A DNA stretch of 64,000 bases from a virus. Lineage: Duplodnaviria > Caudoviricetes. The position numbers are program-made. The stretch covers positions 1,383 through 65,382 of IMG/VR virus record IMGVR_UViG_2724679378_000008; one strand, 5' to 3'. The number at the start of each line of letters is the position of its first letter. Within the stretch, counting starts at the first letter, position 1. Positions 1 through 21,000 of the stretch are shown one piece after another.

Positions 1-3000
1 AAAATCAGCAATATGCTTGGTGGTCACAGTCTCGATCGGCCTCTCTCCAAATTTTTGCTTAATATATCCGATTTGCAGGACTCTCATTTTCATGGTGTTC
101 TCAGCCAGTTCGCGACGCTTTAATAGTTCTGAATAGCGCTTTAGCCAGCTCGCTACGGTATTAATCTCGGCTTTAGCCGCAGGAGTTGGGGCAGGGGCTT
201 GTAATCGTTCAAGCAGGGCTACTGGCTGAAAGTTTGATTCAATATAGTTGTTAGCCTGAATGGCCTGAGAGATGGCATCCCTCCGGGCAATTTGTCCCAG
301 AGGGATCTCTTTTCCAGTAAGTGGATTTCGCCAGTAATAAGATTTGTAATATCGCCGATATGTCAGATTTTTGGGTAAGTTGGCATCATATCGTTTTGGC
401 CTTGATGCCATGATTAATTCTCTCTATCAGTGATGAACTTGTACTGGGGGATGTTTTAAGTATTTCTTTTGCCAGTCGATAGCTTTTAGGCTGAATATAA
501 ATCGCACCTGGCTGTACCCGATACTCGCGCCCATGTTTTTCAGGAGCAGGGTAAATATTGCCTCCTCGCGCCCAGCGCTGGAGTGTCTGGGGGGTTGGTT
601 GCTTGCTGCGGTAGGTTTCTTCCGCCCATTCTTCTAATGTCAGTAGTTTGGTCATTGGTCTTTCCTCAGTAGGAAAGGGCGCAAAGATGTTACGCCCTAT
701 TATGGTCGTTTGGTCTAGGGTGGTAAGGGGCTATGTTTTAGTGATACTGCTATCGAATGCTACGGTCGGATATGGTTAAACCTCCCGAATTAACCGGTTG
801 ATAATGTCTCTTTTGGAGGGAATGCGAAGCTGGTAGGCCAATTGCCATGCTTTGCGCTGATTCTGAGTTTTATGTTCCAACATTTTGCGGATAGTGGTCA
901 CCGGGATACCGGTACTGCTGGCAATCAAATTTTCATTGTGGCCAGCGCGGTGAAACTGATAGATAGCCAGCAAAACTTCCAATGAGTAGCGCTTACGAAT
1001 ACCGATATCAACCGTATCTGCCTGAGATAAGCCGCGCCATCGTTCATCATTGGGATAAATCGGCTTCGGTATTGGCCGGTAGGGGTTACCGCTGCGGATT
1101 TCAGCGCGACAGCGCATTAGCCAGATGATACGAGCGGTATAGTCTCCCCGGTCATCTTCTTTAAAGTAGTTGCCGGTACTCTGGTTCAGTTCCTCATCCA
1201 TCATGCGGCTTCCTTCTGTTTCTGCTCTAATTCCCACTCTTTTACGATTCGGGTGCATTGAGCATGTACCTGGCGGGCGCTGGCGATCCCAAAGCCTTTG
1301 ACGGCATTAGCCAACATATCCGGCGTTCGACGGACAACATCAAATAACGAATGGATCCCAGAACGGGCCAGCAGCTCTAAATGCTGATCTTTCAACGGCA
1401 GGGTTTCGGTAAGCACGGTTTCTGCCCACTCAGCCCGCTTAACTAAGTGTGGGTGAGTAGGCTCAAGCAGATCTCGAATACGCTGGGTAACCGCTGGGGT
1501 CAGGCCATCCGGCCAGTTCTGTTTGAAATCATCAACCATGGGATAGACGGGTAATGCCCACTCGTTGACAGAGACGATCAGGCCAATGCCGCTGGTGGAG
1601 CGAATTTCGATATGCCAGTCAATATCGTTAATGAGCTGCATATCGTAATCACCTGAGCGCAGTTTCAGTCCCCACTGGAAGGTATAAAAGTAAAACTCAA
1701 TACCATCATTGCCACGATAGTAGGTTGGCTCGACGTCACCATCCATACGCTGGATCCGGTTGGTGAGGTCAGAAACGGCATTATTCAATTGGTCATTAAC
1801 ATTGACCATGACAGCCAGTTTGCTGGTTTTTTCTGCCACCTCTTTTTTGTATCGCCGGATCTCTGTTAGTTGCTGGTTTAACAGCGTGCGCTTGCTCTCC
1901 AAATCATCTTTGAGGCGAACGATCTGGATTTTCATTTTTTCAGGATTCAGTGACTTCAACCGATTCACCTCAGTAGCCAACACGCGTTGGTCTGAAAGTG
2001 AAATATTGTATTTGGCTGAAATGCTGTCTCGCTGCGCATTGGCTTCAGCGACTAACAGGTCTGCATTTTCTATGCGTTCCTGCACTTGTGTTAACGCCAA
2101 GGATTTCGTGGTTAGGTCGTTTTCAGTTTTTTCTAAACGGTCGAATAAAAGGTTGTACTCGTCAGTCTCGATGTTGAGTTGTTCAATACATAGGGACTGT
2201 GCTTGGTTGAGTAAAACAGTCGCGCTCTCTATAGAGCGCTGTGCGGTGCCGGTAGTCTGCTCAATGGCAAGGTCTAACTGCGCCCGAACTGGACGCAGAG
2301 ATGACTCCAGCACACTGGCAGTTGTGGCCTGTGTGGTCATGATGGGTTACCTGTGGAATGCCTGCCGGGGCAGGTTATGAAAGGTTATTGCGTGATAGAG
2401 AAATAGCGGATCCGGCCAGCTTTTACCGCGTTGTACAGGCGGTTAACTGTTTCAGTAGTAAGCTCAATTCCTGCCGCCACTAAATCAGCATCAATTTGGG
2501 CAATCCAATTAGCTGGCTTGTCTGTTAGTAGCGTATTTACCGATCCGCCCAGTTGTTTAGGAAAGTTAACCGATCCCGCAGGGTGTAACGAATGATGGAC
2601 TGTTGTATCCGTACTTGCGGCGACTGTTTCTGTAGTGGCCACTGGCGCTGCCTGTTGTTGTTTTTTCAATTCATCAAGCCGCAATGCTTCCTGCTGTCTG
2701 TGCTGTTCCTCAATCTGTTTTTGCCTGGTAATGCGTTGATCAATCATCAGCGCCAGATGTTCGTGCTCAAGGGCAATTATCTGGTTGATGTCAGCGAACA
2801 GATTTTTATAAGCCGGTTCAATATCAGCAAATAGCGCTAAATTGGCCTGATATTTTTCACCTAATTGATTAGCGGCAATCTTGGCGCGGGCCAGTTCATC
2901 GTTGGCTGCACTCTGCAAAGAGGTGAGGGTTTTCTTGCCTTTGATAGCAGTGGCAAAATCAGCCGGGATAGTAGGTAGAGTGACAATAGCCAACTGTTTA

Positions 3001-18000: not shown

Positions 18001-21000
18001 ATTGGCAGAGGTCGTGCAGTTCTGACCAAAGACCAGATATTAGGTACTTTTGCTACCTGCCAGCATATACACCCTGTCGGATTCGATATTTTGATGACCA
18101 AATACCGCAATGACTGTAAAGCCGAGCAACGCTTACGGGCCGCAATTAGTGTGTGGCTGCATAAGCGACCACATCCACCTCGAGCCATTGCTGCCTGCCA
18201 GTTAGCGCTGAATATGGTATTGGATAGAAATCTCCCGGCGCAGGTAGAGCAAATTGCAACTTTACTGCGGCGTTACGGATCTCGGACTGGAATGACCAGA
18301 AAAGTCGTTGATGGGCTACAGCAGCAAATCAAATTGCTGGAAAGAGATAAAGCCCAGGCACTTGATGATGGCACTATCGTATTACTGGCAGACGAAATAA
18401 AAACCCTTCAGTCTAAAATCAAAACAGAACGCGGAGCATTGCGGGCATGGGCTAATCAGCAGGCATCTGTAACGCAGGTATGCCCACGTTGCCATGGTGC
18501 CGGTAAAACTCTGCGACCTCATCCAGAAACATGCAACGAATGCGGTGGTAGTGGCCGTATACCGCCAACAATGGAACATCTGCGCAAATCTATGGGCATC
18601 ATAGGGGCTGAGATACCCGCCGGGGAGTGGGCTGCGCAATATGTGCCGTTAGTTAAAGAATGCATGCACTGGCTATATGTAGAAGAGTCGAATGCGGGTG
18701 ATGTTTTAATTGAGAGAATTCAGTTAGAAAAAGACTTTTGACCAATGATTGACCCTGAATCATATATGCGCTAAATTTCCGAAAGATGCCGGAGTATGCT
18801 TAAAAGCTGCTCCGGTTTTTTATTGGTCAGTTCCGGTCAGTCCTGACTACCCCAAAAGCCTGCATGGTTCGCCCAGCAGGCTTTTTTATTTCCCCAAACC
18901 GGGGAGGTGGAGCATGAAAATGCCTGAAAAAACATCATTTGCCTCATATCTCACAGGGGCGGTGCTGGTATTGGTTGGGAAGCTGGGTAACCTATTAAAA
19001 GATTTAACCCTGAATGATTGGGCGATTGTCATCGGTATTATCATCGGGGTGGCTACCTTTTTTCTGAACGCCTACTGGCAGCGCCGGCAGACAAAAGCTA
19101 TCGAAAAAGCAGCGCGAGAGGGGTACACAATAATCAGGGGGGATAAATAATGGCAGTGTCCTCCCCTTTAATGAAGAAAATATACGGTGTAGTTGCTGGT
19201 GGAGCTATGGCGATCGCAATTGCCCTTGTGGGTGGCAGCGATGGATTGGAAGGGCGTGAGTATATGCCTTATCGTGATGTAGTTGGCGTGCTAACGGTCT
19301 GCGATGGTCACACTGGCAAAGATATCATCCCTAGCAAACGTTACAGCGATGCTGAATGTGATGCTTTGCTACACAAAGATCTGATCCCCGTATTTGCCGC
19401 CATTGACCGCATCGTTAAAGTTCCAATGTCCGATTTTCGCAAAGCTGCCCTGGCATCATTTGGCTACAACGTTGGTATTACTGCCATGACCAATTCCACC
19501 ATGGTGAAAAAACTCAACCGTGGCGACACTTCCGGCGCGTGCGATGAGCTGCGTAGATGGATTAAGGCTGGTGGCAAGGTCTGGAAGGGGTTGGTCAATC
19601 GCCGTGAAGTCGAACGCGAATTATGTCTGATGCCATAAAACCTTTATAAATTAGCTAATAACACCCATTTACATGCTGTTTTGGTAACGCTACGTGAAAT
19701 CTGAATCACTGGTGTATGCCATTACCCCTGCTTTTTTCATAGTAAACGGCATTAAGCCCGGATCCTGATATGTCCACAAAACTAATTATCGCGATTGCCA
19801 GCGTTCTGCTGGTGGTGATCCTGTGCCTTGGCGGTACCGCTTTCTATTTCCACAAAGTTGCTGTTGAGAAGGCCGGGCAATTATCACAACTGCAAATTGA
19901 TCTGGATGAATCAAAAGCCACCCAGGCATTACAGGCTTTTCAGTTCCAGCGCTCCAATGAGATAGCTGCGCAGGCCGGTAGCTATAACGTCACCATTTCT
20001 GCCAAAAGCGAGGAAAGGCAAATTGAAAACCGCAAAGACCTCAAAGTTGAGGAATGCGCTGATCGGTATATCCCTGATTCTACTGCTCAGCGGATGTACG
20101 ACTATACGGACGGTCTACGTGCCAGGGCAATGCGCAATTCCGGCCAACCTGACGGAACCCTTACTGGTACCACTTCCCCCCACAGAATGACTTACCGCCA
20201 AGCAGTGCTGTGGCTTGACCCGTTACTGACCCTGTTAGACCGGGCCAATAACGATAGAGAGTTAATCCGCAGTCTGCCATCACAGCAACCAACCAAACAG
20301 GAGTAAATCATGAATTTCGGACAAGCAATTCAAGCACTGAAAGCCGGATATAAAGTGGCTCGCACAGGGTGGAATGGCAAAGGCATGTTTCTAATTCTTA
20401 TCTCAGGGACTAAAGATGTCGTGCCTTGCGAGGGAACACCATATGCAGCCTTGGCTGTTTCTCCCCAAGGCATTGTGACCATCAACCCCCACATTGACAT
20501 GAAAACTGCTACAGGTGAGATGCAGCCGGGTTGGTTGGCCTCCCAAACCGACATGTTAGCTGAAGACTGGGGCATTGTAGGTAATGAGACTGCGGTCAAC
20601 TCTGTTGGTGAGTATGAATTACCTATCGGACAAACCGTAAAAATAGATGGTTACCCATTTGAGCTGCGGGAGCCGGTGAGGGCGCTAAGTGGTCAGCATG
20701 TCCTGGATGTTCTCAGTGCGGATAAGAACACAGGGATTCAGGCTGTTTAAGTCATTACAGAGTCACTTCCCAAGAGGTGGCTCAATAATGGCCCACAACA
20801 GACCAATAGAACACTATGGCAAAGCATGATTGGGAAGCGTTACAAGCTGCCTTTCTGGCTGATAACGCGGCTACAGGAATTACCGCTCAGCAATGGTGTG
20901 AACAGCATGGACTTAATTACCAATCTGCACGCCGCTATATCAAACCTCGTGCTGCGCAGTCTGCGCAAAAGAAACCCCGTAGAACTGCGCACAATGCGCA

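Follow-up and report, generated by a model that had tools for sequence, protein, structure and literature searches.

A phage-specific start tag, AGGACTGACCAATG(ACCA), consisting of a Shine-Dalgarno sequence, a fixed spacer, and ATG, opens early genes in the virus record IMGVR_UViG_2724679378_000008 of IMG/VR, and a reversed copy of it stands in the late leader behind the Q-like antiterminator gene. The window, as the whole stretch of 64,000 nucleotides (nt) analyzed here is called (positions 1,383 to 65,382), covers nearly all of the 65,382-bp provirus record, at a G+C content of ~47%, and comes from a lambda-like Yersinia prophage whose bases 1-19,000 are arranged as a lambdoid early region. 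Tag and complement are present together in three clades with Q proteins 31-62% identical to that of the window, and both are absent from a fourth clade with a related late promoter. From these sequence relations, we give roughly even chances to an interpretation in which a Q-gated leader RNA pairs with the Shine-Dalgarno and AUG region of the tagged early messenger RNAs (mRNAs) and so blocks their translation.

A shared start tag at seven early genes

The window was searched for AGGACTGACCAATG with up to 2 mismatches. It was found at eight sites where 0.35 were expected, a number not attained in any of 100 shuffles; this comparison with shuffled background had been proposed in the preliminary description of this DNA. 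Five copies are exact and three carry one or two mismatches (Table 1). Their positions, from 653 to 17934, all fall in the early region, and each copy is oriented in the sense of the local early operon; seven terminate in the ATG of an open reading frame (ORF), in agreement with the shared ribosome-binding site and ATG first described for seven early genes, and the ATG-less copy reported at the same time is also present, ending in ATA. When a 13-mer of the tag was used, again with up to 2 mismatches, the whole 64 kb gave nine copies, the eight early sense ones and one reversed at 18822-18834, and none in the other 45 kb (19-64 kb). The ORFs upstream of three of the seven tagged genes stop within the 18-mer listed for each tag in Table 1.

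The extent of the tag was read from 84 non-redundant contexts (flanks <70% alike) taken from 195 distinct ones. Positions 0-13 had served to pick the sites, and therefore only the edges of the block are informative. Conservation starts sharply at the A of AGGA, with only a weak T and G/A (stop codons) upstream, and extends across ATGACCA, positions +14 to +17 still reaching frequencies of 0.79-0.87. The left edge of the conserved tag is also the end of the complement in the leader. In these contexts, the ACTG before AGGA, originally described as part of the motif, proved to be a feature of the Yersinia group that the wider family does not conserve. When the spacer CTGACCA was aligned by eye with the 3' end of 16S ribosomal RNA (rRNA), a weak comparison, no pairing beyond UGAGGA could be seen.

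The ATG-less copy is followed by a hairpin, AACCACG...CGTGGTT (5996-6040, minus strand), and the same site has an ATG and a gene start in G023, G026, and Brenneria-type relatives. The hexamer CTGACC was counted 50 times in the whole window against 20.5 expected; because this excess is spread over both strands, late genes included, the hexamer was dropped from the finding. It may be a codon effect (CTG ACC, GGT CAG).

A scan with the exact 18-mer returned 38 loci on 26 viral contigs, with 0 matches to a backward control in all 26. Related proviruses make up 24 of these contigs and carry 1-9 tag copies each (up to 1 mismatch). Among reference genomes, the 18-mer was found in three Yersinia species and one Brenneria; 10 of 14 matches on genome contigs were single copies in unrelated taxa and were treated as chance. 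Four whole host genomes contained 14 exact 13-mers, in four tight clusters (6 in 17.4 kb, 3 in 2.2 kb, 4 in 6.2 kb, and 1 alone) with none scattered along the chromosomes. The tag is confined to prophages, and two of these four clusters lie within stretches read as prophage early regions. A Brenneria prophage whose Q is 61% identical holds nine sense copies at early gene starts, and several of its tagged genes are the same as those of the window by their first codons (xis, the cII position, rdgC, and Q); flanks are otherwise unlike.

A reversed copy of the tag in the late leader

Directly after Q, a consensus scan placed a candidate late promoter of the PR' type, whose -10 region, GCGCTAAATT, is conserved in relatives. 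It is followed by a first terminator hairpin (T1), the reversed tag copy, a second terminator hairpin (T2), and the first late gene (Table 1). The reversed copy consists of two 10-nt blocks, ATTGGTCAGT (18822-18831) and GGTCAGTCCT (18834-18843), which are the reverse complements of ACTGACCAAT and AGGACTGACC, respectively; the 18821-18846 sequence quoted in the preliminary description, with its two complementary blocks, matches exactly. T1 and T2 were defined from an RNA fold, the promoter and terminator scan having listed neither. The fold, from ~18784 to 18897, reached -43.6 kcal/mol (z -5.27; matched by none of 200 shuffles) and resolved into three elements, T1, a middle hairpin, and T2, so the terminators described on either side of the complement appear as two hairpins with U runs. 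Within the middle hairpin, block 1 pairs with CUGACUA downstream (18843-18849), and block 2 is mostly in the loop. By consensus and folding, the leader thus has the layout of a PR'-leader small RNA (sRNA), lying downstream of Q, behind a promoter, and bounded by an intrinsic terminator. No match to the leader sequence was found in the GenBank phage collection.

In the Brenneria leader, T1 and T2 directly flank a single perfect reversed 13-mer, ATTGGTCAGTCCT, and for this reason the two blocks of the window are taken to be this single 13-mer with a 10-nt internal duplication. Ten further proviruses were looked at, 8 of which (G031-G034, G036, and G038-G040) have 8-11 sense copies (up to 2 mismatches) together with a single, perfect reversed copy immediately behind T1.

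The 3' half of the tag including its ATG, TGACCAATGA, lies at 18742-18751, right after the Q stop codon and directly upstream of the -35 hexamer of the late promoter. In many relatives, an insert of 430-730 bp separates Q from the late promoter in place of this layout.

Tag and complement occur together

For the comparison across relatives, 57 loci were chosen by homology to Q alone, so that the motif did not select them, and the complement was searched within 2.5 kb downstream of Q. At Q identities of 84-99% (23 loci), the tag stands at Q in all 23, and the complement, in duplicated form, follows in 22, the exception being L214. The two loci at 71-74% (G023 and G026) have a degenerate tag and a degenerate complement, with the leader ~2.6 kb away. 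At 54-62% (19 loci), the tag, or a spacing or one-base variant of it, is accompanied by a perfect complement in 16 and by one with a single mismatch in 3. Neither tag nor complement was found at 41-43% (10 loci), where reversed matches with 3 mismatches, seen in 3 of the 10 at 1657-2488 nt after Q, were counted as absent. The three loci at 31-32% all have the tag at Q (as a 2-mismatch variant in L225) and a 2-mismatch complement that keeps GTCAGTCCT. Over the whole set, the complement is present in 44 of 45 clearly tagged Q loci and in 0 of 10 untagged ones, with two loci degenerate for both. Loss of the complementary blocks from relatives that keep the motif had been named beforehand as the outcome that would speak against a link; the complement is kept in 44 of the 45 clearly tagged loci.

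The core GTCAGTCCT is retained in three leader layouts: the single 13-mer, the duplicated Yersinia form, and a split form in the G044/G045/G046 clade. Downstream of the variant complement, the clade with Q 31-32% identical has a hairpin containing TTGGTC and a T2 homologue, shortly before the first late gene. Five of the 10 loci at 41-43% have one sense copy (up to 1 mismatch) in the 10 kb upstream. Four loci of this group were examined: 13-mers that end in ATG recur at most twice in them, and the same four have a related -10 region (GAGCTAAATTCGGAAAGATG), tandem terminators, and a different spacer. In two members of the group, L212 and L216, stretches of 20 kb hold 6-9 exact copies of a long repeat (GAAACACCCCCACAGGCGTGGG...).

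Substitutions and predicted duplexes

Four kinds of change in the complement were seen among relatives. Two replace C by U opposite a G (in L210 and in G016/L184), and two affect the ends of the helix: the final position in L194 and L199 and the first nucleotide of block 2 in the G024 type. The substitutions seen never break the interior of the predicted helix, although cases are few and C-to-T changes are common anyway. GGTCAGT is invariant over 19 leaders. Invariance of the complement was rejected as proof of selection on it: the leader is conserved as a module, far better than Q, with the nine single-copy leaders 95% identical throughout, and complement invariance alone therefore proves little.

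When duplexes of 29 gene starts with the leader spacer were predicted, the seven tagged ones took ranks 1-7, with energies of -20.3 to -29.9 kcal/mol, against a mean of -11.8 kcal/mol for random 30-mers (standard deviation 4.1). This ranking follows from the complementarity and is therefore not independent evidence. In the duplicated leader of the window, block 1 is predicted to be able to pair with UGACCA at the start codon, with block 2 covering AGGACUGACC.

Mosaic joints at the tag

Short conserved boundary sequences have been proposed to serve module exchange in lambdoid phages, according to the part of PMC3029335 drawn on here, and microhomology of this kind was one of the roles suggested for the motif in the preliminary description. 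Positions 1-21000 were aligned to 20 relatives, giving 398 internal alignment ends, which were compared with a hand-picked gene list. Forty-five of these ends lie within 6 nt of a tag, against 4.6 expected by position. Joints fall at the tags at 5774, 7779, 10019/10034, 15888, and 17921, and at none of those at 653, 5996, and 12191, so that five of the seven tagged starts are joints, each in 5-12 relatives. Among 22 untagged starts, 10 are joints, and the difference from 5 of 7 is not significant. Across 183 tag instances from 25 sources, 38 upstream and 34 downstream flank types occur in 50 combinations; upstream flanks of at least 8 kinds lead into the Q gene, and a single one is found in front of 5 different genes. 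Several relatives have a whole extra tagged gene at 10019/10034 with a tag copy on either side, a clean indel. The suggested exchange at the tag is borne out to the extent that joints do fall on it, but they are not specific to it, and the reversed copy is left unexplained. The tag serves as a joint, yet joints do not need the tag.

These joints bear on an alternative that we consider rather unlikely, in which the tag acts only in cis as a cassette for translational start or coupling, its identity kept by, and serving, phage recombination, and the reversed copy is a stray in a conserved leader. The excess of alignment ends at tags, the shuffled flanks, and the gene indel all fit it, as do the break at 17920 in an RNA-library contig of a relative, the upstream stop codons inside the 18-mer, the RecT-family annealing protein that the phage encodes, and the conservation of the leader as a whole. 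Joints are, however, not clearly commoner at tagged starts, and a reversed copy would be a liability, since recombination with it would invert the Q segment; it is nevertheless kept in three layouts and in clades with Q 31-62% identical. The fixed 7-nt spacer is not needed for Shine-Dalgarno function, and 13-18 bp is short for homologous exchange. Gene borders marked by a short conserved sequence, and mosaic joints exactly on it, are what the window shares with the boundary-sequence proposal; it differs in that joints are not clearly commoner at tagged borders and in a conserved reversed leader copy, which the proposal as described in that part of the source does not predict (PMC3029335). Module exchange at the tags is read as a by-product of tag identity.

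Proposed role of the leader RNA

The interpretation in which the leader RNA silences tagged early genes starts from three features. The fixed register of the sense copies with ATG argues for a role at the RNA level; a conserved reversed copy that has no ATG and occupies an unpaired or loop position in a transcribed leader argues for RNA-RNA pairing; and T1 in front of the complement fits Q dependence, in that the seed would be meant to appear after Q acts. From these, we infer transcription beyond T1, intracellular pairing, and a timed repression, as follows. Because T1 precedes the complement, the complement would be transcribed in quantity only once Q carries polymerase past T1. The leader, either still joined to the late mRNA as its 5' end or as a separate piece that terminates at T2 or is trimmed there, could then pair through 10-17 nt with the Shine-Dalgarno sequence and AUG of tagged early mRNAs, blocking their translation and perhaps speeding their decay. 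Early functions, including Q itself, would in this way be switched off late in infection. For the Q-dependent late sRNA originally suggested, the link between tag and complement, the placement of T1, and the substitutions are favorable. A Q-modified polymerase should read through T2, and a discrete sRNA is therefore uncertain.

Besides the expected read-through of T2, several observations weigh against silencing by the leader RNA. Only 7 of ~26 early ORFs in a hand-made gene list are tagged. Block 1 is sequestered in a hairpin of the predicted fold of the window. Overall identity among nine distinct single-copy leaders is 95%, and a 32-column stretch that includes the complement is invariant as a whole; over 19 leaders, alifold gave double changes in 2 of 22 predicted hairpin pairs, so covariation is weak. 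The 57 loci behind the co-occurrence of tag and complement stand for about five clades and are not independent of one another. In G023 and G026, the leader copy is degenerate although several tag copies remain, and G025/L214, tagged at Q, lacks a complement in the 2.5 kb searched. The ACCA that follows the ATG, although conserved, is unexplained by pairing with single-copy leaders.

This last point, together with a conserved block longer than a Shine-Dalgarno sequence, would suit a protein site: either an RNA-binding repressor of many early messages or a DNA-binding protein indifferent to orientation. T4 RegA offers a precedent, being one repressor that acts on many early start regions. We hold a protein site to be very improbable, however. 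The reversed copy, which in RNA is the complement, cannot be read by an RNA-binding protein, and a DNA-binding protein would have no need for its site to keep a fixed register with ATG. No candidate protein came to light, none having been looked for.

RNA data were available for a related lysogen. Each of two RNA libraries yielded one contig running from 17920 via Q and a 729-nt insert into the leader, covering 18768-18856 in one and 18768-18969 in the other; strand, ends, and RNA origin are not shown by these contigs. Two raw-read runs gave 0 reads and hence no test, and in the search of sequencing runs shares were at most 0.18 for the RNA rows. The two contigs would agree with pairing in the lysogen, where leakage through T1 from an always-active late promoter would give an RNA of ~105 nt ending at T2. 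Such an RNA would mop up stray N, Q, and xis transcripts and could silence incoming tagged relatives, leading to stabilization or exclusion. The leader has the typical sRNA layout of a 5' hairpin, a U-rich stretch, a seed, and a terminator hairpin with a U tail, and a terminated PR' transcript of Stx phages is an active sRNA in lysogeny, in the portion of PMC7547250 considered. This alternative nevertheless appears improbable: T1, with its 12-pair hairpin and U run in front of the seed, should keep seed RNA scarce without Q, and exclusion of relatives would select against keeping the tag.

Comparison with known systems

As far as the relevant text of PMC3203893 describes them, the start-associated sequences (SAS) of Cluster K mycobacteriophages (Pope et al. 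2011) have the consensus GGGATAGGAGCCC and a function that was left open; in four of these phages (Anaya, Adephagia, Angelica, and CrimD), a lone reversed copy lies outside the gene starts, and an additional inverted-repeat element, ESAS, accompanies half of the SAS. The start tag is best regarded as an analogue of SAS and not a member of that class. Both are asymmetric 13-bp repeats with a Shine-Dalgarno core, placed in one orientation a few nt from start codons (mostly ATG for SAS), and both are longer than pairing with rRNA explains (PMC3203893). Both are also restricted to the non-structural half of the genome, here the early part, stand before genes of different families, and are absent or nearly absent from the host genome (PMC3203893). 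The sequence, hosts, and phage type are different: the SAS consensus is replaced here by AGGACTGACCAATG, in Yersinia and Brenneria prophages, and the tag of the window has ATG in its fixed block (PMC3203893).

StxS is an Hfq-dependent sRNA formed from the terminated PR' transcript of Stx phages, with stx1AB and rpoS as targets in the text consulted (PMC7547250; PMC12197685). The leader of the window is predicted to share with it a short late-promoter RNA downstream of Q, bounded by a late terminator and base pairing in trans (PMC7547250). StxS, in the same sources, is made in the lysogen by termination, whereas here the seed lies behind the first terminator and the proposed targets are the phage's own identical start regions. 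Sequence similarity to StxS was found neither by Rfam on positions 1-21000 nor by comparing the leader with the phage collection.

The c4 antisense RNA is encoded upstream of its target, ant, in the same operon, and its a and b blocks are presented in loops. In the part of PMC12197685 that treats it, c4 of P1 and P7 blocks translation by pairing short complementary blocks with a ribosome-binding site. The two-block leader of the window resembles this arrangement; c4 as described there has one target message (ant), whereas at least 7 targets in two other operons are proposed here. On the evidence of these portions of the sources, neither StxS nor c4 targets a set of the phage's own identical start regions. 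Literature searched for the concept of such leader and tag regulation returned only StxS-type work, and the 13-mer itself did not occur in the literature covered, with subscription journals and supplements outside the search.

Early shut-off in lambdoid phages is usually ascribed to control of transcription (Cro, terminators) and a few cis-encoded antisense RNAs. If correct, a leader RNA acting in trans on a tag shared by N, Q, xis, and recombination genes would be a new translational layer, would supply a testable mechanism for SAS, unexplained since 2011, and would represent a compact natural pair of tag and seed for co-repressing several genes. It is possible, if somewhat short of an even prospect, that these elements form an RNA regulon in which one tag marks the early genes and one T1-gated seed silences all of them once Q fires; the same logic may explain SAS and could be a general, overlooked way in which temperate phages time the early-to-late switch at translation.

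Genes of the window and other features

The coordinates of tags, genes, and leader elements are collected in Table 1. The excisionase, RecT-family, and N-position genes belong to a leftward operon, and the genes from the cII position to Q to a rightward one. Among the earlier gene names, xis, rdgC, and Q are backed by family matches, and bet describes a role only (PF03837). The names N-like and cII-position rest on position only, because neither the 81-aa nor the 120-aa protein matched a family in the protein-family checks.

Table 1. Positions of start tags, early genes, and late-leader elements in the window
Feature	Position	Strand	Remarks
Start tag ACTGAGGAAAGACCAATG, excisionase gene	653..670	-	AGGACTGACCAATG at 653-666, 2 mismatches
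Start tag TCTGAGGGCTGACCAATG, RecT-family gene	5773..5790	-	AGGACTGACCAATG at 5773-5786, 1 mismatch; stop of ORF 5786-5950 inside tag
Tag copy without ATG AGGACTGAACAATA	5996..6013	-	AGGACTGACCAATG at 5996-6009, 2 mismatches, ending ATA; then hairpin
Start tag, 81-aa ORF 7517-7762	7760..7777	-	exact at 7760-7773
Start tag, 120-aa ORF 10030-10392	10015..10032	+	exact at 10019-10032
Start tag, RdgC/FtsK-gamma gene	12187..12204	+	exact at 12191-12204; stop of ORF 11416-12198 is TGA inside tag
Start tag, ORF 15899-16333	15884..15901	+	exact at 15888-15901; stop of ORF 15241-15888 within tag
Start tag, Q-like gene	17917..17934	+	exact at 17921-17934
Excisionase (xis)	386-655	-	PF07825
RecT-family annealing protein, 599 aa	3976-5775	-	PF03837
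81-aa ORF, N position	7517-7762	-	position only; N-terminus MATTSRQKRMA
CI-like repressor, helix-turn-helix and S24 peptidase	8964-9635		faces Cro-like ORF
Cro-like ORF	9746-10012		opposite CI-like repressor
120-aa ORF, cII position	10030-10392	+	position only
RdgC and FtsK-gamma domain protein	12202-13338	+	
phrog_1621 ORF (orf15899)	15899-16333	+	family without assigned function
Q-like antiterminator	17932-18741	+	phrog_127, E 9e-12
PR'-like late promoter candidate, TTGACC-17-TAAATT	18749..18777	+	consensus scan; just after Q
First terminator hairpin T1	18788..18821	+	hairpin 18788-18816, 12 pairs, then UUUUUU
Reversed tag copy, ATTGGTCAGT + TCC + GGTCAGTCCT	18822..18843	+	between T1 and T2
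Second terminator hairpin T2	18854..18891	+	10 pairs or more, UUUUUU; first late gene ATG at 18915

Among GenBank phages, no close relative of the window was found, the sole match being a 233-bp methylase stretch in Burkholderia phage Bcep22. Positions 1-21000 gave 0 matches to any curated Rfam model at E values up to 1.

Many relatives have a second module of late-promoter -10 region and T1, 6-10 kb downstream of the first. It was located in class B at L107, L114, L115, L119, L120, L125, L133, L145, and L149 and in class C at L108, L127, L142, and L148, and where both modules lie in one locus (L119, L120, and L142) they have the same orientation. The second module continues with another spacer and another second terminator and has no tag complement; it could be a second Q-dependent transcription unit. 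G044 and G046, placed in class C as tagged phages without a complement, were rejected as such, since the elements in question are second promoter-terminator modules ~6 kb downstream; the true late leaders of their clade hold the variant complement.

Alignments of relatives skip ~950 bp of the RecT-family gene (4299-5249). The RecT domain match covers only residues 21-176 of the 599 aa, and the long C-terminal part is variable. The RdgC protein ends in an FtsK-gamma domain of the KOPS-binding type, an unusual fusion among phage early genes.

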